UHGV virus genome: UHGV-0119636
Length of the DNA stretch: 27,711 nt
Strand: one strand, 5' to 3'
Origin: a virus
Of this stretch, positions 16,089-27,711 are shown piece by piece. Position 1 is the stretch's first letter, and each line of letters begins with the position of its first letter. The notes beneath the pieces were generated by a model. That model was not told the origin of the DNA and did no database searches. It worked only from the letters and a program-made list of their open reading frames with translations. Position numbers and translations under genes: made by a program.

Positions 16089-16685
16089 ATGACAATAGGA
16101 CAAAAAATAAAAGAATTACGCAATCAACTTAATATGTCGGTGGATGATCTTGCTGTGAAACTGGGTAAGAACCGTGCGACTATCTACCGCTATGAACGAG
16201 GAGATATCGAGAACCTCCCTCTCGATGTACTAGAACCATTAGCAAATGCTCTTGAGACCACACCTGGTTATTTAATGGGATGGGAAGAAACTACGAAAAA
16301 GAAAGAGCCTTCAATTATCGATGAAGTTACCATGGGTGACGTTTTTAAAGCGTTACGTCTAGGAAGTAATTTATCGATAGAGGAATTTTCGCATGAGATT
16401 GGATTATCTGCCCAAGACATAAGCAATTATGAAGCAGGAAAGACTCCTATACCTGTAAATATAATTAATCTTGTTGCTGATTTCTTTGGCATATCAATAG
16501 CGGAAATAGTTAAGGCACACAAAAACAGCGAAAATAGAACGCCTTCTGGTTTCGAAATGAAAAAGGAACGATTTGAACGTTTTAAAGTTTGGAATAAAGA
16601 GTTTGGACGAATACATTTTACTGATGAAGAAATCAATAAAATAATGGAATATACAAGGTTCTTACTTAGCCAAAGAAGACAGTAA
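16089..16685 (+). CDS. Tandem-HTH XRE-family repressor-like regulator, 198 aa
   Basis: SD AAAGGAG; two XRE-type helix-turn-helix units (residues about 1-65 and 80-140); no peptidase S24-like C-terminus seen. Confidence 0.75.
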   Translation: MTIGQKIKELRNQLNMSVDDLAVKLGKNRATIYRYERGDIENLPLDVLEPLANALETTPGYLMGWEETTKKKEPSIIDEVTMGDVFKALRLGSNLSIEEFSHEIGLSAQDISNYEAGKTPIPVNIINLVADFFGISIAEIVKAHKNSENRTPSGFEMKKERFERFKVWNKEFGRIHFTDEEINKIMEYTRFLLSQRRQ

Positions 16686-16770
16686 GTCTACATAGGTTTA
16701 CTCTATTTAAAGGAGGTGATGCCTGAATTCAGTTCATCGTAGAATTTACATCAAAGGAAAGGTGGAACCA

Positions 16771-18348
16771 ATGACAACGTTTGATATGAACAACGCTGTA
16801 GACAATGCGTTCGGTATGGACGTATATGCTATCTATCTTCGGAAAAGTCGAGCCGATGTAGAAGCAGAAAAACTTGGAGAAGGAGAAACACTAGCAAGGC
16901 ATAGAAAGATACTAACAGAACTTGCTGCTAGAAAAGGATTGTATATCGGTAAGATTTACGAGGAAATTGTATCTGGTGAAACAATCGAAGCTAGACCTGA
17001 AATACAAAAACTGATAGAAGATTGTTATAAAGGGAAATATAGAGGAATCCTAATAGTAGAAGTTACTCGTCTATCTCGTGGTAATCAAGGAGACGCTCAA
17101 AAAATACTCGACTGTCTCAAATATTCGAATAGAAACAATGGTGTATTAGTTATCACTCCTACTAAGACTTATGACGTTGCACACAGCCAAGAAGACGAAG
17201 AATATATGGAGTTTGAATTGTTTATGTCTCGTCGAGAATATAAGATGATTCAAAAGCGTATGGATCGTGGCCGTAAACAAGCAGTCGTAGAAGGAAACTT
17301 CATGGGTAGTTACCGTCCCTATGGATATGACATCTTAAAAACCAAGACCGGACGAACACTTATACCGAATGAAGATGAAGCTCCTATCGTGAAAATGATT
17401 TACGAATGGACAGTTAACGATAATTTATCTCCTTTCAAGATAGCTGAGCGTTTAACTAATATGGGTGTTCCTACTTATTATGGTGAGAAGGATTGGTCTA
17501 AAGAAACAGTTAAAACCATTTTGACGAATCAGACATACATGGGTAAAGTTCGTTGGAATGATCGAATGACTGTTAAGACTATGGTCGACGGAGAACTTAA
17601 AGCTACACGACCTCGTTCAAATCATTCCGATCACTTCATGCTATATGATGGAAAACATATGAAACACGCACTCGTCGACGAAGAAACATTCAAAGCAGCC
17701 TCCTCTCGCTTTCATAACGATAGGACAAGATCAAATCTAAAACTTGTTAATCCTCTTGCAGGACTTCTATTTTGTAAGAAATGTGGTAAATCTATGGGTT
17801 ATCAATCATATAGACATAAGAAAAACGGACCAATGGATCGATACAATCATAGACAGTCTGCTAATGGATGCAAGGTTAAGTCAGCAGTTGCTGAGGATGT
17901 TATAAAAGCTGTTATACATGCTTTGAAACTTTATATAGAAGATTTCGAATTTAAGTTAGACAACACTCCAGATGTTGACGAAAATTCAATCAATACGCAG
18001 CTCGAAGCTTTACAAAAAGAAATACGAAAATCCGAACGAAAACTTGCTAAGCTATTCGATTCTTGGGAAGATGAGAAGATAACAGATAATGAATTTGTTC
18101 AAAGGAAAGCCGTCCATAATCAGAAGATAGAAAATATAAAGAGGCAAATGGAAGAACTCGAATATTCGATACCAGAAAGAGAAGAATATGAGGATAAAAT
18201 AATATTGCTGTCTGAAGCACTTGTCGCTATCACAGACGAATCGCTTGACGCAGATATTAAGAACGAGTATCTTAAAAGAATCATTGATAGAATAGAGTTT
18301 AGTAGAGAGAATAACTCAGAGTTTATACTAGATATAGACTTATGCTAA
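16771..18348 (+). CDS. Large serine recombinase (integrase-type), about 525 aa
   Basis: ATG at 16771 after AAAGGAAAGG (track start 16762 is GTG); N-terminal YAIYLRKSR catalytic-serine region, Cys-rich zinc-ribbon CKKCGK...C, C-terminal coiled coil. Confidence 0.8.
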   Translation: MTTFDMNNAVDNAFGMDVYAIYLRKSRADVEAEKLGEGETLARHRKILTELAARKGLYIGKIYEEIVSGETIEARPEIQKLIEDCYKGKYRGILIVEVTRLSRGNQGDAQKILDCLKYSNRNNGVLVITPTKTYDVAHSQEDEEYMEFELFMSRREYKMIQKRMDRGRKQAVVEGNFMGSYRPYGYDILKTKTGRTLIPNEDEAPIVKMIYEWTVNDNLSPFKIAERLTNMGVPTYYGEKDWSKETVKTILTNQTYMGKVRWNDRMTVKTMVDGELKATRPRSNHSDHFMLYDGKHMKHALVDEETFKAASSRFHNDRTRSNLKLVNPLAGLLFCKKCGKSMGYQSYRHKKNGPMDRYNHRQSANGCKVKSAVAEDVIKAVIHALKLYIEDFEFKLDNTPDVDENSINTQLEALQKEIRKSERKLAKLFDSWEDEKITDNEFVQRKAVHNQKIENIKRQMEELEYSIPEREEYEDKIILLSEALVAITDESLDADIKNEYLKRIIDRIEFSRENNSEFILDIDLC

Positions 18349-18504: not shown

Positions 18505-18756
18505 ATGAGAATAGTATGGAAAGACAGTGCGCCTAAAACAAAACCTTGGTTGACGTTCAAATATAGAGAACATATCGTTAGCCAATATGGAGATGGATGG
18601 ATTACCGATATACCTGGTGATAACAATATCTATTTTCCGAGAGAGTGTGCTTATAATGCAATCGATAAGTCTCTAGGTGGAAAGACACGAAAAGCTAATC
18701 CTCAAAGACATAAATTAGGAATAAAAGTTATTGGTAGAAAGGACGATGTATCATGA
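18505..18756 (+). CDS. Small protein, MRIVWKDS family, copy 1, 83 aa
   Basis: Strong SD AAGGAGGAG; stop overlaps the start of copy 2 (ATGA). Confidence 0.6.
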   Translation: MRIVWKDSAPKTKPWLTFKYREHIVSQYGDGWITDIPGDNNIYFPRECAYNAIDKSLGGKTRKANPQRHKLGIKVIGRKDDVS

Positions 18757-19004
18757 GAATCGTATGGAAAGATAGTCATAAGCCAAAAGAATATGAACCT
18801 ATGAAATATCGAAATATTTACATCTTCGGTACTCCTGAAGGATGGGAAGTAAATATAAAAGGAGATAATAATCTATACAAGACTCATTACTGTGCTATGA
18901 ATGCGATTGATGATTACTTTGGAGATTTTGGAGAACGTGGTACAGAAAAACGTAAACGATATGGAATACAAATAATAGGTAAGAAAAATGATGAGACTGC
19001 ATGA
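18753..19004 (+). CDS. Small protein, MRIVWKDS family, copy 2, 83 aa
   Basis: Shares MRIVWKDS, GW, GDNN-Y, CA-NAID and GI-IG-K-D motifs with copy 1. Confidence 0.6.
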   Translation: MRIVWKDSHKPKEYEPMKYRNIYIFGTPEGWEVNIKGDNNLYKTHYCAMNAIDDYFGDFGERGTEKRKRYGIQIIGKKNDETA

Positions 19005-19012
19005 ATCTCAAA

Positions 19013-19046
19013 AGCCACTTCCTTTTCTGGAGGTGGCATATTTTTA
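19013..19046. terminator. Bidirectional intrinsic terminator between convergent genes
   Basis: Hairpin GCCACTTCC-TTTTCT-GGAGGTGGC followed by ATATTTTTAT; lies between the plus-gene stop at 19004 and the minus-gene stop at 19053. Confidence 0.6.
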
Positions 19047-19052
19047 TCTAGG

Positions 19053-19595
19053 TTAGACATTTCTATTTTCGTATGACGTAAATTTTACATTTGTGTACTC
19101 GTTAACCAAAAAGCTACATGCTTCATTAACTGTTTTAACGACGGATTCCCCTTCTATATAACTCTGATAATTCCTTCTTTGATTTTCAAATTTAAGATCA
19201 GGTTCAACCATGGTATCTACACTTAACCATATTAGTTCCGTAGTATAGTCTTCGGTAAAATATCCTTTTATAAAAACCTCTTTCTTTCCAACCGTTCCGA
19301 TTAGTTTTATAAACGACATATCATGCTTCGTCAGATTAAACGCATATCTTATTCCTTTTACATATTGCCCGCCAAGTTTCCTCGACTTAATTGTTTCATA
19401 GTAATTATCTTTATTGTTGTTCTTTTTATGCCACTCATCCGATATACAAATCCACATTAAAAGTTCGCTTAAAGTTGCAACCATGGATATGCTATTTTGT
19501 TTGTCGCTTGTGCTTAAATATTCATGAAATCTTTTATGAGATTCTCTTAATCCATGGTTTATATACATTAGCCTAAATTCTTCGACACTATTCAT
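19053..19595 (-). CDS. Hypothetical protein, about 180 aa, accessory (moron) candidate
   Basis: ATG at 19595 after SD AGGAGGA; no peptidoglycan-hydrolase motifs recognised; own promoter region with the palindrome GGAAATTTCC upstream. Confidence 0.55.
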   Translation of the reverse strand: MNSVEEFRLMYINHGLRESHKRFHEYLSTSDKQNSISMVATLSELLMWICISDEWHKKNNNKDNYYETIKSRKLGGQYVKGIRYAFNLTKHDMSFIKLIGTVGKKEVFIKGYFTEDYTTELIWLSVDTMVEPDLKFENQRRNYQSYIEGESVVKTVNEACSFLVNEYTNVKFTSYENRNV

Positions 19596-19662
19596 TATCT
19601 GCATTCCTCCTTTTATCGTAATATTCGACCATATAGGAGAAATTTCCTTTTAACCATATGAA

Positions 19663-19700
19663 GAAAAATAAAAGGGGCTGTTTTATTCGCCCCAATTATT
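19663..19700 (-). terminator. Intrinsic terminator after the lysis operon
   Basis: Stem GGGGC/GCCCC with A-tract and T-tract on either side, immediately after the stop at 19701. Confidence 0.55.
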
Positions 19701-20009
19701 TTACATCTTGTGTGAAATCTCCTCGCAATGCTTTTCCAATGATTTGATTCGTTCTTCGTGACCCTGATTTTGAATTTTCAGCTCGTCTATTTCAGATCCA
19801 TGATTCGTAACCCGAGTCTTCAAGTTATTAATCATCTCGGTCAAGAAGTTTATAGTCGCGTTGAGTTTGATTATGTTTTCGTTTAGCTTTTCGATAGGCT
19901 CATTTTTAGAATGTTCTTCCTGAGTAATATCCTTCCTCAGTTTCATATAGAAAGCGAACACTGAGCCTATGACTGTTAAGACAATGATTATAACTTGATT
20001 CTCTGCCAT
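19701..20009 (-). CDS. Membrane-anchored coiled-coil protein, 102 aa, lysis-associated
   Basis: N-terminal helix VIIIVLTVIGSVFAFY, then a coiled-coil-like remainder; start 3 nt after the holin stop. Confidence 0.55.
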   Translation of the reverse strand: MAENQVIIIVLTVIGSVFAFYMKLRKDITQEEHSKNEPIEKLNENIIKLNATINFLTEMINNLKTRVTNHGSEIDELKIQNQGHEERIKSLEKHCEEISHKM

Positions 20010-20011
20010 AG

Positions 20012-20305
20012 TTATTTTTCCTTCGCTGTATTATTATCGTCTTTCTTACCTTCTACAAATCTACTAAATCCCTGATGTAGACCTGTAGATGCCAGACCCA
20101 TAACTGCACCATATACGATGGAATCGACAGAGATGCCGCTTACTGCCGTATTCAATGCTGCGCCGACAACAGCCAGGATGACTGGAATATCGTCGTTAGG
20201 GATACGTTTTAAAAAAGTCGCATGTTTGATGATATATCCAACCACCAGACAAGCGACCATTACTACAAGTACGAAATGTTCAGTTAAAATTTTTGCGAAA
20301 TCCAT
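20012..20305 (-). CDS. Putative holin, 97 aa
   Basis: Three hydrophobic segments (FVLVVMVACLVVGYII, IPVILAVVGAAL, IVYGAVMGLASTGL) and a charged C-terminus; placed after the tail-fibre genes. Confidence 0.5.
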   Translation of the reverse strand: MDFAKILTEHFVLVVMVACLVVGYIIKHATFLKRIPNDDIPVILAVVGAALNTAVSGISVDSIVYGAVMGLASTGLHQGFSRFVEGKKDDNNTAKEK

Positions 20306-20329
20306 TTTGAATTACCTTCCTTTCTTTTA

Positions 20330-20965
20330 CTAATTAACTTTTTCCCATCCAGCAGGATATGCCTCAGGGGAGTACACGTTGTTATCGATAAGTGAAACGT
20401 ACTTCTCGTTATTGAATGTTATCTTATCTCCCTTTTTATATGCCGTCTCAGCGTTGATCGGCTGTTTAAATTCTGGATACTCAACGTTAGGATCTGAGAT
20501 TTCAACATACAAGGACGGAGAAACATCCGGCTTCCATTCTTCAGTAGATGTGAACGGATCTGACGCGACAACCTTATAGAATTTATCCTGATAGATAAAG
20601 CGATCTCCTTTGCTATATGTAACTCCCACAACATATTCCGGATACATATATCTCATAATATAAGCATCTTTGTCAGAAGCTTGTTTAAGTGTAAGATCGA
20701 ACTGCAACTCTTCAAGTTTCTTAGTTCCTTCTTCGATAGCTGCTTCTTTTTCTTTTTCTTTCAGGATATTATTGTAATGCTCTTCGTCATAAACTAGATG
20801 GTATTTCTTATCCTCTTCGTTAAGTTTCAAAGCATAACAATGTAATTTGGAAAGATCCACAACAGTATCATCGAGAATCGCACAAATATAATTATTGCGT
20901 AATTGACGAAGAGAAATGTTAGTTATCTCTCCATTGACGTTTTCCGCTTCAACATAAACATTCAT
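20330..20965 (-). CDS. Hypothetical tail/lysis-associated protein, 211 aa
   Basis: ORF track; C-terminal repeated YSKGDRFIYQDKFYKVV / YKKGDKITFNNEKYVSL units. Confidence 0.55.
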   Translation of the reverse strand: MNVYVEAENVNGEITNISLRQLRNNYICAILDDTVVDLSKLHCYALKLNEEDKKYHLVYDEEHYNNILKEKEKEAAIEEGTKKLEELQFDLTLKQASDKDAYIMRYMYPEYVVGVTYSKGDRFIYQDKFYKVVASDPFTSTEEWKPDVSPSLYVEISDPNVEYPEFKQPINAETAYKKGDKITFNNEKYVSLIDNNVYSPEAYPAGWEKVN

Positions 20966-20981
20966 TGCTCATCACCTCCCC

Positions 20982-21317
20982 TTAAACATCAACAGCCCCC
21001 GTATAGGAAGGCTGAGTTTTTAACCAATCGTATGCATTTTGAATTAGATCGCCTATAAGTAGTTTCTGAGCCTCATCCCATTCAATGCTAAGATAATCCA
21101 TGTTGGTGTATGGAAAAGATGGCTCTCCTATGATTCTACCAGCCATATAATCCTTATCGTATTGACGACCTTCTTTATCAATGTACGATTCTACAATAAT
21201 AGTAGCTCGCTGATTAATTTCTACGTTAATGGCGGCAATATGATGATAGCTTACTACTACACCATTAGCGGTTTTAATGTTTACTTCTATAGCCAAAATA
21301 TCACTCCTAAACTCCAA
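20982..21317 (-). CDS. Small tail-fibre-associated protein, 111 aa, paralog of the 23747-24028 gene
   Basis: Shares YH-I, IN-, SYID and AY-LKT-P--GA-D motifs with the 93-aa protein; follows a fibre gene. Confidence 0.6.
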   Translation of the reverse strand: MEFRSDILAIEVNIKTANGVVVSYHHIAAINVEINQRATIIVESYIDKEGRQYDKDYMAGRIIGEPSFPYTNMDYLSIEWDEAQKLLIGDLIQNAYDWLKTQPSYTGAVDV

Positions 21318-22440
21318 TTACTTGTCTAAGAACAAACCTGTTATTGGTATAAGCAACTCCATTGTTTCCCTGTCCGGTATAGTTATTTTCAACCCCACCG
21401 GTGAGTTTGCCATCAGATATGTTCAATACTTTAACACTCGCATATCCGCAAACTTCAGACATAAGCGTGAAACACCACGGTTTTCCTGAGTATGTAGAAA
21501 CAGCGCTTTTAGGCACGAAGAAGCTATGTAATCTTGTATTAGTAGCAGACCCATTATAATAGTCAGAGAATATCAATACGATTCCATGAGGTTGATTTGA
21601 TACAGGGCTACTAAAAGTTATGGTATGAGTATTACTCGGCCATAAACTTCCGGTCCATAGTGTATTATTTGTAAACCTTTCGGTAACTGAACCTCTTACA
21701 AAGCCATTATCAGCAGTAAACGTCATAGCAGTTCTGATACTGTGAGGGGAATATGAATCTGTTGGGGTCATGAGAAAATAATTTTCGCTACTCCCATCAA
21801 CTTTTCTAGCAAACATTTTTACTGTAGGACTGACTCCTCCTCTATCCCCTTTAACGCTAACATAAGAAGCCACACCATCGTGTGACTCAAAATTTGCTAA
21901 CATATCAGCAATATCTGCTCTTAATACCACGCGATACTCTCCATCATAGCGGCTAGTGTAAATTGTTTCAGTAGTTGAGGCAGCATTAGCTTCGTATGTA
22001 ATGATTGGATCATCATCATCTTCGAAATAAACGAGAACATCGTCTGTAAATGCTTCATCGTTTTCGATGACTAAAGTACCTTTTACAGTAGATATCTTAC
22101 CTCTACCGTTATTCATGGATATTACTGTATTATCTGAATTTTTCCCGAGATCTATTAACGATTCACCAAAAGTAGCCAACTCAGTAATTCCGTTTCTCAT
22201 TTCGATGTCTGTACTACTAATAAGAATATTTCTGCCAAGAGTTGATGTTCTCTTATCAGCAACCATAAGTCCATTAGCATCGAAACCGAGGAAGTTTGTA
22301 GCGGTTTTAGCAGCTTCTACAGCCTGACCATAAGGATCAATCCAGCTACTCCATGTTGAAGTTGAAGTTCCAACACGCCAATATTCTTTTCCAGTACCTT
22401 CGACTTTGGCTGTCTGTCTCGGATATTTTTGTACGGCATA
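21307..22440 (-). CDS. Tail fibre / receptor-binding protein, C-terminal segment; frame open upstream of its first ATG
   Basis: Frame is open from the TGA at 22441-22443 to the stop at 21307; the 58 codons before the first ATG (22266) are protein-like (GTGKEYWRVGTSTSTWSSW) and match the fibre repeat module. Confidence 0.55.
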   Translation of the reverse strand, partial: YAVQKYPRQTAKVEGTGKEYWRVGTSTSTWSSWIDPYGQAVEAAKTATNFLGFDANGLMVADKRTSTLGRNILISSTDIEMRNGITELATFGESLIDLGKNSDNTVISMNNGRGKISTVKGTLVIENDEAFTDDVLVYFEDDDDPIITYEANAASTTETIYTSRYDGEYRVVLRADIADMLANFESHDGVASYVSVKGDRGGVSPTVKMFARKVDGSSENYFLMTPTDSYSPHSIRTAMTFTADNGFVRGSVTERFTNNTLWTGSLWPSNTHTITFSSPVSNQPHGIVLIFSDYYNGSATNTRLHSFFVPKSAVSTYSGKPWCFTLMSEVCGYASVKVLNISDGKLTGGVENNYTGQGNNGVAYTNNRFVLRQVIGV

Positions 22441-23726
22441 TCAGTTCGTAAATGACAGTAAGTCCCTACTCCAGACAATCCTATAGTAGAACAATACTTG
22501 AATTCGGCAACTGATGTACTAGGATAATTATTTATGTAATATAGCGGCGGGTAATTCGAATTTTTGGTATCTTTTACGTCAAGTCCGTCGCCTTTTGGTC
22601 CTTGTGGTCCAGTAGGTCCTTGTGGTCCTGTTGCGCCTGTACTACCAGTTTCTCCTCGTGGTCCAGTAGGTCCTTGTGGTCCAGTGGCTCCTGTGGCTCC
22701 GGTGTTACCAGTAATACATACACCATTAGATGATGGAGTATATGATGTAGTGTTGTCTGTGTACGTTACCAGTGTTCTTCTCCAAATATACTTTCCATCA
22801 GCCCACGTAGGTTGACTCGTACTCCATGATCCACCTGTTAATGTTGTCGGGGAATTGGATGAATAGAACTGTTCTTGTGTACTTTTTATGGTAGAACCCA
22901 GTGTTACGCTCAATCCATTAGCAGTCTGTTCTAGAGTAGAGACCTCGCCTTCCAAATCTGTTACTTTCGAACTTAAACCACTGGCAGTCTGTTCTACCGT
23001 ACTAACCCTGTTTCCAAGAGAAGTAGTTTCCTGTACATTTGCTTCTATTCTGTCAGCATTTTGATCGATACTGGATTTAGCGTTTGTTAGATCTGTAGTG
23101 AGCTTCGATACATCCGAAGTTAAGCCATCAGCAGTCTGTTCAAGCGTGCTTGTCCTGACACCTAATTCATTTGTGGCGTTCACATTTGCTGTAATACGTT
23201 CTCTTTCTATGTTCAGATCAGCTTCGTACTCCGTTCTGAGGTCATTCACGGCTTCCCATGAACTATCACAAACTGGGCTTGTGTATGCATTTGACGTTGG
23301 GTTCTTATACGTAATGAGATATCTCGTCCATAAATACATACCAGTAGACCAGGTAGGCATGGAAGTTACCCATGACCCGCCTGTCTGTGTTGTTTTGGAA
23401 GTGCTTAAATAATATTGCTGAGTGATGCTATCAATGCCAGTACCAGTAGGACCCTGAGATCCTGTTGCCCCGTCGGTTCCATTCTTAGGTATGTAAGATA
23501 CTGAATATGTTGTAGATGTATCACCCTCTGTATATGTAATGACGGTTCTGCTCCACAAATACTGTCCAGGTGATACAGAGGGGATTGTCGTACTCCATGT
23601 ACCGTTTGGAGGATTTGTGCCTGACGTACCAGCCTGATAAGTTATGACTGTGGATGTAATTCCCTTGCCGTCTATTCCGTCTATAATGTCCGAGATAGTA
23701 ACCTCGGCTTTAGCTATCACAGCCAA
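22317..23726 (-). CDS. Tail fibre protein with collagen-like Gly-X-Y repeats, 469 aa in this frame
   Basis: TTG start after SD AAAGGA; GATGATGPQGPTGPRGETGSTGATGPQGPTGPQGPKGDG; repeated LEQTA-GL and GGSW-TS-PTW modules. Confidence 0.7.
   Translation of the reverse strand: MAVIAKAEVTISDIIDGIDGKGITSTVITYQAGTSGTNPPNGTWSTTIPSVSPGQYLWSRTVITYTEGDTSTTYSVSYIPKNGTDGATGSQGPTGTGIDSITQQYYLSTSKTTQTGGSWVTSMPTWSTGMYLWTRYLITYKNPTSNAYTSPVCDSSWEAVNDLRTEYEADLNIERERITANVNATNELGVRTSTLEQTADGLTSDVSKLTTDLTNAKSSIDQNADRIEANVQETTSLGNRVSTVEQTASGLSSKVTDLEGEVSTLEQTANGLSVTLGSTIKSTQEQFYSSNSPTTLTGGSWSTSQPTWADGKYIWRRTLVTYTDNTTSYTPSSNGVCITGNTGATGATGPQGPTGPRGETGSTGATGPQGPTGPQGPKGDGLDVKDTKNSNYPPLYYINNYPSTSVAEFKYCSTIGLSGVGTYCHLRTDMPYKNIRDRQPKSKVLEKNIGVLELQLQHGVAGLILMVRL
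22585..22712 (-). repeat. Collagen-like nucleotide repeats inside the fibre gene
   Basis: ggtccttgtggtccagtaggtcc occurs twice with related units between. Confidence 0.5.
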
Positions 23727-23746
23727 ATAACATCACTGTCCTTTCT

Positions 23747-24028
23747 CTAAATATCTGTAGCTCCCTCGAATTCAGGAAGTGTTTTAAGATACTCATATGC
23801 AAGTTCAATTGTCATATTAGGACTATAATCTGTCTCATAAGTCTTGCTCTTTTTATAAGCAACAGAATCGAATGTGTCTTTTTCGTCATTCCTTGCATGT
23901 TCATCAATGTATGAGAGAACCGCTATGGAATTCTGCCGATTGATTGTCGACTGAATAAATAAGATTCTATGATAGTTTGTAGTAACGCCGTCCAGTTGTT
24001 TAATAGCTTTACATAATGCCATAATCAT
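23747..24028 (-). CDS. Small tail-fibre-associated protein, 93 aa
   Basis: Paralog of the 20982-21317 gene; follows the 594-aa gene. Confidence 0.6.
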   Translation of the reverse strand: MIMALCKAIKQLDGVTTNYHRILFIQSTINRQNSIAVLSYIDEHARNDEKDTFDSVAYKKSKTYETDYSPNMTIELAYEYLKTLPEFEGATDI

Positions 24029-24036
24029 CAGTCTCC

Positions 24037-25821
24037 TTAACTAAAAGTAATCTTTCCGTCCCAATATATACCAATAGCATCATTGTTTGTTACATTTGTT
24101 GTGTTAGTAAAAACTACTTTAATATAAACACCAACTCCATATGTAGCGTACGTATCATATGAATCGGGTTTCACATAAACAGAAGCAGCCGATCCGTGTG
24201 TATACTTAGTGTTCTGCCTTAATACAAAACCGTCCAAACTGGTAGCCGTTGCAGTTGGTGATCCTATTATTGGTTTTGACATAGGAACCCAGAATGAAAT
24301 ATCTCTGCCGGAATTAGTCACATAACCAGCAGTTCGTAATGTTATCGAAATGGTATCTCCACGCGAATAATATGGTTTGTATGTACCTGGACTAGCCAAG
24401 TCACTAATACCAAATGTTATGTTATGACCATAAATATTCGTGTTGCCCGTTCTAGCATCCCAGTTTCCATACCCGACAATAGTATTACCATATTGGTTCT
24501 GAGCCTGGAATGCTTCGTGATAAGTCCCATCGGTAGCATTTTTAGCTATAATGGAATTCGGAGAATCCAGAACCACATCTTGCCTAAAATAAGCTTTATA
24601 ATTAACATCAAAAGCGTCATTTAACTCAGCTGGTTTACCAATTGATACACCTTTTCCTCCAGCTTTAAAGTCGATAGGAAATCTAGCACCACCAAGAGTT
24701 TTCTTAACCGATGTAGTACCATTCTTACTATCAGTTACTTTAATTGTGAATTCATAAGATTTATCAACGTTTAACGCATTATCTCCTACTACTACAGAAG
24801 CGCTTCCACTATTACCAGATGCAGAGATGGTTTTCGTGTTGGTCAACCATGACACAGTTACTGATGTTACCGGGTTTGATCCGGTTAACTGACTACAAGA
24901 CCAATTAAATGTAATCTTACAATAAGTTCCGGTTTCCTGTGTCGTACCGCTTGAATTACAACGAGTAACTTTCACGCTTGATATAGTTGGAGGCTTATAC
25001 GCAAGTTCCCATACAGCGTAAAGAGTAATAGCAGCATTTGAAGTATAGTTAGCTCCTGCCGCATAAGCTACAGCACCTGTCGCAGACTTAGCCCAACCTT
25101 TAAAGTTATAGTTCGTCCTGGTAGGTTTAGTAGTTGATAATTTAAGAGTTACACCGTACGTTTTCGTTTGCTGTGCAGGTGCTCCACTTCCTCCGTTAGC
25201 ATTATAAGTAACTTTGTAAGTGATAGCCTGCCATACCGCATAAAGAGTAACACTCGCATTTGCTGTATAACTTGCCCCAGCAGCATAAGCCACACCCCCA
25301 GTAGAAGATGTGGCCCAACCTTTAAATGTATATCCTGTTCTCGTAGGTTTTGTAGACGATAATGTAATGTTTGTTCCATGCCATTTTGTCTGTTGAGATG
25401 GAGCACCTGAACCTCCGTTTGCGTTATAACTAATCTTATAGGAAGTTTTAGCCGCAACCGAGATCGATCCACTGGCAGTCTTAGTTCCAGCGTAGGTTCC
25501 GCTCCATGTGAAATTCATTTCAAAGGAGAACCACAAAGCGATAGATCTTGCTGATGTTCCCTTTGTAATAGTTACGGTTCCACTTGTAATTGTCTGAGAA
25601 CTTTTACCACCTATGGAGAATGTTCCAGATTTAACAACTTTACCATCTATTTTGACACTGTAATTTTTCGCAACGCTAGAGTTAACAGTATATCCATGAG
25701 TTACCCATTTGAGTGTCCAAGAAAGTGTGGCAGTGGTTGCAGTACTACTTGACTGAGTTACTACAAGTTGAACCTGCGGACAGGATGAACTACCAAATTG
25801 TGCCGTTGTTAAAGTTGCCAT
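24037..25821 (-). CDS. Tail protein with two Listeria-Bacteroides-type repeat domains, 594 aa
   Basis: Two about 70-aa repeats (YKISYNANGGSGAP...KPTRTGYTFKGWA...LYAVWQ and YKVTYNANGGSGAP...KPTRTNYNFKGWA...LYAVWE); start overlaps the upstream stop. Confidence 0.7.
   Translation of the reverse strand: MATLTTAQFGSSSCPQVQLVVTQSSSTATTATLSWTLKWVTHGYTVNSSVAKNYSVKIDGKVVKSGTFSIGGKSSQTITSGTVTITKGTSARSIALWFSFEMNFTWSGTYAGTKTASGSISVAAKTSYKISYNANGGSGAPSQQTKWHGTNITLSSTKPTRTGYTFKGWATSSTGGVAYAAGASYTANASVTLYAVWQAITYKVTYNANGGSGAPAQQTKTYGVTLKLSTTKPTRTNYNFKGWAKSATGAVAYAAGANYTSNAAITLYAVWELAYKPPTISSVKVTRCNSSGTTQETGTYCKITFNWSCSQLTGSNPVTSVTVSWLTNTKTISASGNSGSASVVVGDNALNVDKSYEFTIKVTDSKNGTTSVKKTLGGARFPIDFKAGGKGVSIGKPAELNDAFDVNYKAYFRQDVVLDSPNSIIAKNATDGTYHEAFQAQNQYGNTIVGYGNWDARTGNTNIYGHNITFGISDLASPGTYKPYYSRGDTISITLRTAGYVTNSGRDISFWVPMSKPIIGSPTATATSLDGFVLRQNTKYTHGSAASVYVKPDSYDTYATYGVGVYIKVVFTNTTNVTNNDAIGIYWDGKITFS
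25009..25440 (-). repeat. Tandem ~210-bp direct repeat encoding the two repeat domains
   Basis: Copies at about 25009-25218 and 25228-25440 are highly similar at nucleotide level. Confidence 0.6.
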
Positions 25822-27194
25822 TATGAATCACTTCCTTTCCAAATGAGACCCATGTTACCGTTACTGCGCTCTGCAAATGCAAATCCGCCAAATGCTAATT
25901 CATCCTCAACTTCTGCTTTTCCGATTTTTAACGATTGGTTAGTTACATATGCCGGGACGGTTGTACCATCCATGAATTTTATAGCTGTATTGGTGATTAG
26001 AACTTTAAACGAACTCTCATTTCCAAGCTCAATGCACGGTTCGTCTCCATCAGTTGTGATTCGAATATAATTCGTTAACTCTTCCAAACCTGTCACAGCA
26101 TTTTCCAATGCAGTGATATCTCCACCTTGAGCGTCAATATCATTCTCCAAAGACTTTATTCCATCAATAGCATTCTGTAATTGAGTTAAAGTCTCACCCA
26201 TAGAAAATATCCATCCACTTGATGTTTGCTCTATTAACGAAGCTCCGCTACCGTCAACAACCATGGTAGATATTGAATCAGCTATCTGTGAAATCCTAGA
26301 TTCTGCTTGTTCGATACGTTCAGTCAATCTATCGGCTGCATCTTGAGCAGCATTTTCCGCTGCTTCTAAGCCATTAGATGACGCTAAATCTTCCGGAGCC
26401 GGTGTCCAGTCGGTTGCTTTGTTTCCGAGTTCGAATTTAACATTTCGAATTTTGCAACCTACCTGTGTTGGACAATATATCTCTATTTTGTTACTACTAA
26501 TCAAGTCAGTTCCTTCTTCTCCTTTATCAGCAACGGTAATGTCCAATTCTTGATGTACCCAAGTAGTTCCAACAGCCTGGATTGAATTGTTTATAGTCAT
26601 TACATATCTGGGTGTTCCGTTCGTATTATATACATTGCAAGTTGTACTTCCGTTTGGACTAACGATATCAAAACTCATTTTGACTTTTTCCCCAACGAAG
26701 TTACTCATAGGAACTGTCAGATTATAAAATTGTGAAAAAGAACCTGTATCTTGATATGTTGCTAAGACATATTCATTATTTTCATCAAATGGTAAACCAC
26801 TACGACCATCACCATCATAATCAACGTCTCTTGTTCCGAAATAGTTTCTTCCTCCTATTTCAAGTCCGTCAATCTTATTATTAGTGCTATTCGCAGTGTT
26901 CTGTGCATTAACCGCTTTGTTGTATGCCTGCTTCGCCGCTTCATACGAGCTCGATTTCGAAACTGACGAATATCTAAAATTCCCATTTGTAAATACAGTA
27001 CAATCCACGAAATATAAAGTATTAGTAGATCCAGCACTGTATGAAGGTTCCGTCAATGACCAATTACCGCCTGGCGGATTACTTGTGGGTTTGGCCGGGA
27101 TGTTGGTAGTAGACGATTGTAACAGATAATATCGAGTTACAGATTCTATATCAACGATATGGGATATTGTTATCTCGGCCTTCCCCCTAATCAT
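25821..27194 (-). CDS. Tail fibre / baseplate-associated protein, 457 aa
   Basis: SD AAGGAG; N-terminus MIRGKAEITISHIVD matches the N-terminus AKAEVTISDIIDG of the 469-aa fibre; C-terminal coiled-coil-like region. Confidence 0.65.
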   Translation of the reverse strand: MIRGKAEITISHIVDIESVTRYYLLQSSTTNIPAKPTSNPPGGNWSLTEPSYSAGSTNTLYFVDCTVFTNGNFRYSSVSKSSSYEAAKQAYNKAVNAQNTANSTNNKIDGLEIGGRNYFGTRDVDYDGDGRSGLPFDENNEYVLATYQDTGSFSQFYNLTVPMSNFVGEKVKMSFDIVSPNGSTTCNVYNTNGTPRYVMTINNSIQAVGTTWVHQELDITVADKGEEGTDLISSNKIEIYCPTQVGCKIRNVKFELGNKATDWTPAPEDLASSNGLEAAENAAQDAADRLTERIEQAESRISQIADSISTMVVDGSGASLIEQTSSGWIFSMGETLTQLQNAIDGIKSLENDIDAQGGDITALENAVTGLEELTNYIRITTDGDEPCIELGNESSFKVLITNTAIKFMDGTTVPAYVTNQSLKIGKAEVEDELAFGGFAFAERSNGNMGLIWKGSDS

Positions 27195-27204
27195 ATTAAG
27201 CTCC

Positions 27205-27711
27205 TTACTGCTCTAACTGAGCGGTATAAACTACAGAATTAGTAACCTCAGCCGCTGATACGCTCAATGTCTTACTGGTTTTAATTGCTGTAGTTGATCC
27301 CTGTTTATACCATTTAATACTTCCAAGAGATCCGCATACTCCGGCGTCCGTGATTGACTGTTCAATAGCGCCTTTAAATACATGAGCTGTTAATACAGTA
27401 GAGCCGGAATTGTTCTTAAATATAGTTCCGTTTGAGGAAGTAATGGTAATTGTAATAGCATCAGCTCCAGCATTACCCTGAGCACCTGTTGCTCCATGAG
27501 TTCCGATGATTGCTGGAGTAGAAGAAGCTGTCTGACCATTTGTATATGTAGTCTTCTGATATGACCAAATATATTTGTTTGTTGTTGTAGTTGCTGTCGG
27601 TGTAGTTGACCATCCACTTGTAGATGTAGTCACTCCACTTGATGCGGATGTTGTAAGGTAGAAAGTTTCAACCTTCGATATGCCATTACCTGTAGCACCT
27701 GTCTGACCTGT
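27205..27711 (-). CDS. Tail fibre-like protein, C-terminal part (gene continues beyond window end)
   Basis: Frame is open to the window edge; Gly-X-Y stretch TGQTGATGNG and module TSTSGWSTTPT...KYIWSYQKTTY. Confidence 0.6.
   Translation of the reverse strand, partial: TGQTGATGNGISKVETFYLTTSASSGVTTSTSGWSTTPTATTTTNKYIWSYQKTTYTNGQTASSTPAIIGTHGATGAQGNAGADAITITITSSNGTIFKNNSGSTVLTAHVFKGAIEQSITDAGVCGSLGSIKWYKQGSTTAIKTSKTLSVSAAEVTNSVVYTAQLEQ

Follow-up and report, generated by a model that had tools for sequence, protein, structure and literature searches.

The tail-fibre locus of UHGV virus genome UHGV-0119636 raises the question of what two fibre genes, each followed by a small gene of the same family, do side by side in one phage. 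The stretch analysed, here called the window, is ENA metagenome contig ERZ1755778 NODE_485, 27,711 bp long, from a human-gut data set and with a coverage of 2.99. A first-pass annotation had read the locus as duplicated receptor-binding modules, that is, two fibre-plus-helper units in tandem with dual receptor specificity or the role of an alternative host-range cassette. The analysis favours, with moderate confidence, an adhesion device with two different fibres, a common docking peptide and small partner proteins that are specific to the fibre tips. This picture draws on observed homologies, synteny, a gene fusion with its deletion, and the co-variation of tips with small proteins, from which docking, chaperone action and dual receptor binding are predicted.

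Every gene of the locus lies on the minus strand, in the order g374, g457, g594, g91, a 469-aa open reading frame (ORF), a 319-aa ORF and g104. The genes that carry the argument are the following:

24037..25821, minus strand: g594, probable distal part of fibre 1 (N-terminal domain, two Flg_new repeats, middle domain, tip)
24040-24636, minus strand: C-terminal tip domain of g594 (aa 396-594)
23747..24022, minus strand: g91, putative small partner of the g594-type tip (AAGGAG ribosome-binding site, start 14 nt past the g594 stop)
22317..23726, minus strand: 469-aa ORF, 5' fragment of an 810-aa fibre-2 gene (g810)
21307..22266, minus strand: 319-aa ORF, 3' fragment of the same gene (stem and C-terminal tip)
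~21310-21939, minus strand: fibre-2 tip domain, within the 319-aa ORF
20982..21296, minus strand: g104, putative small partner of the g810-type tip (TTG start, TAGGAG ribosome-binding site, 10 nt past the fibre-2 stop)

Fibre tips and small genes

The two small genes are paralogous (33% identity and E=1e-13 by BLASTP; z=18.5 against shuffles), as had been proposed for the protein that follows each fibre block. The lengths first given for them, 93 and 111 aa, give way to 91 aa (23747-24022) and 104 aa (20982-21296), the likely lengths according to Shine-Dalgarno-supported starts. The tips that precede them are another matter: BLASTP of g594 against the 319-aa fragment returned nothing, and remote homology between the two tips was rejected as undetectable, at an hhalign probability of 0.4% between the tip-domain alignments. 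At the DNA level, no repeat between the two modules was found in 19000-27711. The two distal tips thus appear to be unrelated, and duplication is confined to the spacer units, the docking peptide and the small gene after each fibre; of the 'duplicated receptor-binding modules' of the first-pass annotation, these three elements stand, while the tips do not, and the repeats look like spacers.

Loci with relatives of the small genes were compared in a set of 24 loci from species-representative genomes and 80 loci from IMG/VR viral contigs, with flanks of 8-10 kb. The genome loci include Blautia faecis, B. glucerasea, B. fusiformis, a Ruminococcus metagenome-assembled genome (MAG) and many Clostridia MAGs, the few MAG labels from other phyla being possible binning errors, and the set consists mostly of prophages or viral contigs of Blautia, Ruminococcus and other Clostridia. 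Exactly one small gene is present within the fetched flanks of each locus (104/104), and two small-gene cassettes occur, among the loci examined, only in this phage and its near-identical copies. In the genome loci and in L001, a near-identical contig of 81.8 kb from another sample, the small gene invariably starts 3-26 nt after the end of a large same-strand ORF or overlaps it by at most 36 nt (26/26). The upstream ORF, available in 78 of the viral loci, ends in a g594-type tip in 55, in a g810-type tip in 15 and in another domain in eight; among the genome loci, twelve have a g594-type tip and one (L008) a g810-type tip.

Within this set, the type of the small gene follows the type of the tip. 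Between loci, similarity of the small proteins goes with similarity of the upstream ORFs over their last 180 aa (Mantel r=0.81, p=3e-4) and much less over their first 180 aa (r=0.26). Among non-redundant loci, a g91-like gene comes after a g594-type tip in 49 of 50 cases and a g104-like gene after a g810-type tip in all 14 (Fisher p=3e-13, without phylogenetic correction). Module swapping across related phages, for which the first-pass annotation had suggested looking, is therefore borne out in the form of a tip that moves together with its own small protein, and these two together appear to be the exchangeable, independently mobile unit. Since the tip and small-protein cassettes are independent, two different binding specificities are plausible for this phage.

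The commonest and simplest relatives have a single fibre with a g594-type tip right after a Tal-like protein of 352 aa (30 non-redundant loci). Tips are also carried by g524-type, g457-type, long multi-unit and other N-terminal architectures, and they occur as stand-alone proteins of ~196 aa, so that the tip may be regarded as an autonomous unit for which non-covalent attachment is possible. Stand-alone tips of the g594 type (~196-201 aa) often have a Flg_new-repeat protein on one side and the small gene on the other, as in L018 (7844-10273) and many other loci.

Docking peptide, spacer units and fibre architecture

The shared parts of the fibres, and the remaining features of the fibre genes, are placed in the window as follows:

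27205..27711, minus strand: 3' end of g374 (168 codons; the rest lies beyond the window edge, 374 aa in full)
~27502-27711, minus strand: complete spacer unit of g374, followed by an Ig-like C-terminal domain
25821..27194, minus strand: g457, probable proximal part of fibre 1
~27144-27194, minus strand: putative N-terminal docking peptide of g457 (MIRGKAEITISHIVD)
~26943-27158, minus strand: single, degenerate spacer unit of g457
25009-25218 and 25231-25440, minus strand: Listeria-Bacteroides (Flg_new) DNA repeats of g594
23676-23726, minus strand: putative fibre-2 docking peptide, in the 469-aa ORF
~23481-23684, 23259-23450 and 22713-22904, minus strand: three fibre-2 spacer units, in the 469-aa ORF
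22590-22712, minus strand: fibre-2 collagen-like G-X-Y repeats, in the 469-aa ORF, which also has a coiled coil

The 457-aa and 469-aa proteins had been said to share an N-terminus, and they do: BLASTP aligns them over 113 columns with 32% identity (E=6e-6), the local score lies z=9.8 above shuffles, and none of 2000 composition-preserving shuffles reaches it. The shared start is a peptide of ~17 residues that is found in three proteins (MAVIAKAEVTISDIIDG in fibre 2, MIRGKAEITISHIVD in g457 and MAIRSADQITIIDVTD in g374, whose full-length form in L001 begins with this peptide and has two spacer units). In the homologue set, the peptide is confined to the extreme start of stand-alone fibre proteins; its motif precedes none of 105 internal copies of the spacer unit, and the copies inspected are preceded instead by short collagen-like G-X-Y linkers. 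From this distribution we infer that the peptide may dock both fibres and g374 onto the baseplate or onto one another.

The repeat module that had been noticed in three genes is likewise confirmed, as a unit of ~55-60 aa (range 55-70) with the pattern G-I-x-x-V..Y-Y..S..G-x-W-x-T..P....G-x-Y-L-W-x-R....Y. It has six copies in three adjacent genes, namely three in the 469-aa ORF, two in full-length g374 (one of them in the window) and a degenerate one in g457. Its conserved positions are aromatic residues, Gly and Pro (Trp, Tyr-x-Trp and Tyr included), and g810 scores z=12.2 against g374 in the shuffle test, so that the shared segments do not reduce to low-complexity Ser/Thr-rich sequence. Through these units, tblastn of g810 reaches 111 Streptococcus thermophilus phage records, 38 Lactococcus records (BK5-T at 11 places) and tail or host-range proteins of Enterococcus and further phages, one match being the 'host range and adsorption protein' of phage CHPC640 (29.6% identity, E=1e-12).

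Extensions of the Tal protein in S. thermophilus phages have been described as containing a ~60-aa '3-beta domain plus collagen-like linker', which resembles the junction module of Tuc2009 BppA, together with carbohydrate-binding modules (CBMs) (Goulet et al. 2022, PMC9437275). Because its size and G-X-Y linker context fit this description, the GGSW...YLW.R...Y unit is likely to be a structural spacer of the same kind rather than a receptor-binding module. The locus shares with the Tal extensions of S. thermophilus and Lactococcus siphophages (PMC9437275) the ~60-aa units, the short G-X-Y linkers, the alternation of domains and the mosaic organisation; unlike them, it has its modules in separate genes, not fused to Tal, and its tips and small partners fall outside that description. 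Profiles of the spacer unit and of the conserved middle domain ('knob', a working label only) found nothing among PDB sequences at E<=1.

Further along the chains, g810 has a coiled coil that resembles the P22 gp26 needle (E=7e-7, PDB search) and a Collagen match (PF01391) above the cutoff, a combination that would be the hallmark of a trimeric fibre. In g594, Flg_new (PF09479) occurs in two copies (113.5 bits, against a cutoff of 27), with a PDB match to the InlB B-repeat (E=4e-7). The PDB sequence search gave no match for g457, only the InlB repeat for g594 and only coiled-coil and collagen matches for g810. At the C-termini of g594 and of the 319-aa fragment, no Pfam match to the Peptidase S74 intramolecular chaperone was found.

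The middle domain of g457 matches phage 'host range and adsorption' PHROGs and is followed by a coiled coil and a C-terminal domain (aa 280-457). Five relatives have this C-terminal domain at the end of the ORF that immediately precedes a fibre gene with the g594-type tip, and four of the five are among the nine relatives that also retain the N-terminal, Flg_new or middle domains of g594. On account of this adjacency and of the overlap between the g457 stop and the g594 start (ATGA), fibre 1 is probably a two-protein fibre, with g457 as its proximal and g594 as its distal part.

The second fibre gene and its deletion

The first-pass annotation spoke of a 469-aa protein and of two fibre-plus-helper modules in tandem; the tandem architecture stands, and the 469-aa ORF turns out to be incomplete, one part of a split 810-aa gene. 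The ORF enters the conserved middle domain and then loses the frame, and three-frame translation of the junction between the 469-aa and 319-aa ORFs shows that the conserved domain resumes in another frame. About 28 database homologues run uninterrupted over this junction, and in comparison with them the window lacks four codons and one base, with the invariant S-G-G of a D-x-S-G-G motif among the losses. Two contigs from other samples, L001 and L002, match the window at 99.8-99.9% identity and have the 810-aa reading frame intact, and the sole indel between them and the window is the following, upstream of the fibre-2 tip, where it shifts the frame:

22426..22430, minus strand: junction of the 13-bp deletion (GATACTAGCGGAG), with GATA direct repeats on either side

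Two partial contigs from other samples (L114 and L115) are also uninterrupted at the 13-bp site. The ATG listed for the 319-aa ORF, at 22266, has no ribosome-binding site, and the ORF is for that reason not considered an independent gene; the 469-aa and 319-aa ORFs together represent a single 810-aa fibre-2 gene. A programmed -1 frameshift and a homopolymer error at the junction were both considered and rejected, given the 13 nt, including the D-x-S-G-G motif, that are missing relative to homologues and sister contigs.

In contig L004, from another sample, a different frameshift deletion, of 7 bp (CATGGGT), lies at ~6700, which corresponds to ~23370 of the window, in the second spacer unit and between GGGT repeats. 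Both deleted contigs have only ~3x coverage, and at that depth either deletion may be a real allele or an error; deletions at 4-bp microhomology are not expected from a de Bruijn assembler. Assemblies of this phage also tend to break within the 810-aa gene, where five contigs end and five start (L002, L004-L007, L114-L118), which suggests internal repeats or strain-level microdiversity. Should the 13-bp deletion be real, the second specificity would be gone from this genome.

The best-surviving alternative starts from these deletions: fibre 1 alone would work, and fibre 2 with g104 would be a non-functional module, recently acquired or duplicated and now being lost. We consider this unlikely, though worth keeping in view. 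The window and L004 have independent deletions in the same gene, the 4-bp direct repeats fit real slippage, and the two events stand out among the very few differences over ~13 kb of 99.9%-identical DNA; none of the 104 related loci has two small genes, so that one module is enough elsewhere. On the other side, the fibre-2 gene is uninterrupted at the 13-bp site in all four sister contigs named above (L001, L002, L114 and L115), g810 and g104 retain their ribosome-binding sites and full-length conserved domains, and the ~3x coverage of both deleted contigs leaves room for an error or a minor variant.

The small-protein family and its role

A profile of the two paralogues retrieved 968 close relatives in a word-indexed search, and the matches listed all lacked Pfam domains and source names. 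When 1.84 billion representatives were searched exhaustively, 1,423 clusters at 50% identity emerged, nearly all of them stand-alone proteins of 85-125 aa. Scans of both small proteins against Pfam (E<=0.1) and NCBIfam returned no family, PHROGs gave only weak matches to two families of unknown function, and tblastn of g91 against 50,697 GenBank phage records found no match. An XkdW-like or Tfa-like identity (Caudo_TAP, gp38-type) was tried for the small proteins and rejected, as there was no profile match and no fold match to solved structures.

One member of the family is encoded by a phage with an annotated fibre. In Bacillus phage BCD7 (NC_019515, L112 45504-50191), the 101-aa gp078 matches the small-protein profile at 45 bits and its fold at a TM score of 0.77-0.79, and its gene lies 2 nt downstream of the putative tail fibre gp079 and upstream of the endolysin and holin. 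In having a family member just downstream of a tail-fibre gene, BCD7 gp079/gp078 resembles the locus in the window; unlike it, BCD7 is a 94-kb Bacillus cereus phage with a single cassette and a fibre tip related to neither of the two described here.

We infer from position and co-variation that the small protein may be a tip-specific assembly or attachment partner, and a role as a dedicated assembly helper is given slightly less than an even chance. Several points weigh against the picture of two fibres with tip-specific partners. The gene for the second fibre is interrupted in the window contig and, through a different deletion of 7 bp, also in L004. Part of the co-variation may come from linkage, as the genes are neighbours, and the tests of it are uncorrected for phylogeny. 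Neither a known fibre-chaperone family nor a solved structure matches the small proteins. Finally, the C-terminus of BCD7 gp079 resembles, by eye only, an S74-type intramolecular chaperone domain, and yet a member of the family follows it; a pure folding-chaperone role therefore fits less well, and a tip-bound accessory role stays possible.

A second alternative would detach the small proteins from the fibres altogether, by taking their genes for lysis, regulatory or anti-defence genes that happen to lie where tail and lysis genes meet, and would explain the shared fibre segments by composition. The missing family annotation agrees with it, as does the position of the small gene as the last one before the holin in several loci. 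It is nevertheless highly improbable, since g91 lies here between two fibre genes and away from the lysis boundary, the subtype of the small protein tracks the type of the tip (p=3e-13), its similarity follows the tip and not the fibre N-terminus, and the shuffle tests exclude composition as the source of the shared segments.

A wider reading of the family is tentative, possible but short of probable. According to it, the 91/104-aa proteins would be tip-specific fibre partners with a fold unlike solved structures, distributed from gut Clostridia prophages to BCD7; tip and partner would be the true host-range unit, the small gene would mark the receptor-binding tip, and this phage would be a rare case with two units, one of which microhomology deletions repeatedly knock out in natural populations.

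Genomic context

The fibre genes are followed in the window by these neighbours:

20330..20965, minus strand: 211-aa protein with two CBM5/12-like repeats, between g104 and the holin
20012-20305, minus strand: holin
19701-20009, minus strand: 102-aa protein, XhlA-like
19053-19604, minus strand: gene of 180/183 aa with no Pfam or PHROG match
18505-18756 and 18753-19004, plus strand: tandem paralogous 83-aa genes, both with the N-terminus MRIVWKDS
16089-18348, plus strand: HTH_3 repressor-like gene (198 aa) and large serine recombinase of 525-528 aa, facing the fibre and lysis genes

In L001, a tape-measure protein of 2515 aa and tail proteins of 859, 352 and 524 aa lie upstream of the fibres, and the holin, the large serine recombinase and the helix-turn-helix (HTH) repressor lie downstream. 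This context shows the locus to be the distal end of a late (tail) operon. The element that carries it is a temperate, long-tailed and siphophage-like phage or prophage of human-gut Clostridia, with the gene pair at 16089-18348 as its lysogeny module. The fibre-locus genes are tightly packed, each with a ribosome-binding site and without internal terminators, and between the two modules no internal promoters or terminators beyond chance were found, an arrangement in which both fibres would be made from a single late operon. Megablast of the locus against the 50,697 GenBank phage records returned no match.

The 211-aa CBM5/12-like protein is present in all copies of this phage and may be either a tail or a lysis accessory. 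No recognisable endolysin adjoins the holin (20012-20305) and the XhlA-like 102-aa gene. The tandem 83-aa genes have the large serine recombinase on one side and the lysis genes on the other; Pfam has no match for either, and the one scanned against PHROGs has none there.

Large serine enzymes beside a repressor are the usual layout of prophage integrases, and invertases are ~190 aa long. The weakest alternative makes the locus a switchable host-range cassette, whose modules would take turns through inversion of the DNA, through recombination or through targeted hypermutation, on the model of Mu G, P1 C, shufflons and diversity-generating retroelements. Three observations are in its favour: the two modules share a 5' end, a gene for a serine recombinase is found ~2.7 kb past the locus, and contigs of many samples break inside the 810-aa gene, which hints at population heterogeneity. 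It is nevertheless very improbable: both modules are encoded on the minus strand, none is flanked by the best of the inverted repeats in 8.7 kb (23 nt at 83%), the only recombinase seen is a 525-528-aa enzyme of integrase type (Resolvase, Recombinase and Zn-ribbon) beside the HTH repressor, contigs from different samples are collinear, and no direct repeats of the template/variable-repeat kind occur in 19000-27711 (reverse transcriptase was not searched across the whole window). The locus thus differs from Mu G, P1 C and shufflons in its same-strand modules, in having no flanking inverted repeats and no small invertase, and from the targets of diversity-generating retroelements in having no template and variable repeat pair in that region, and nothing observed here supports the alternative cassette of the first-pass annotation.

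Comparison with known adhesion devices

Cassettes of a fibre gene and a downstream assembly or chaperone gene are known from Mu, P2 and lambda (Tfa) and from T4 (gp37-gp38), and cyanophage Pam3 reportedly has a fibre-chaperone pair. The locus resembles these cassettes in that the small gene comes right after the fibre gene, that specificity follows the C-terminal tip and that tip and small gene move together. It differs from them in that its small proteins have no sequence or fold relation to the Tfa, gp38 or Pam3 chaperones, that the hosts are Gram-positive Clostridia and Bacilli, and that the role of the small proteins is a prediction from sequence.

Phages with two sets of receptor-binding proteins (RBPs) include T5 (L-shaped fibres and pb5), lambda (Stf and J), Twort-like staphylococcal phages (two RBPs) and K1-5/SP6 (dual tailspikes). 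As in these phages, two structurally different distal binding proteins would stand side by side, encoded here in one late operon and known from their genes. Unlike in these phages, both fibres share an N-terminal peptide and spacer units, and each has a paralogous small partner.

In the proposed device, both fibres and the preceding 374-aa protein would be mounted through the common ~17-residue N-terminal peptide and would extend outward through trimeric spacers, coiled coil and collagen-like stretch, ending in two different tips. Fibre 1 would consist of g457 as the proximal shaft and of g594 as the distal part, with two Listeria-Bacteroides repeats and a beta-rich tip, and fibre 2 of a single 810-aa chain with spacer units, coiled coil, collagen-like stretch, conserved middle domain, stem and a different tip. 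Each tip would need its cognate small protein for assembly or trimerisation, or would keep it bound; in the window contig, the 13-bp deletion cuts fibre 2 short before its tip.

Implications

The locus is otherwise a standard, mosaic adhesion module, in which the uncharacterised small-protein family is the one new element and the most useful by-product of the analysis. Although abundant, the phages of Lachnospiraceae and other Clostridia in the gut are almost uncharacterised, and their receptor-binding proteins are not yet recognisable from sequence. If the small gene is the cognate partner of the tip, it shows where the receptor-binding protein ends in the ~100 loci examined and defines the unit that should be swapped together in host-range engineering. 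A phage with two such cassettes, of which intact and truncated alleles are found across samples, offers a natural experiment on whether carrying a second fibre extends the host range.

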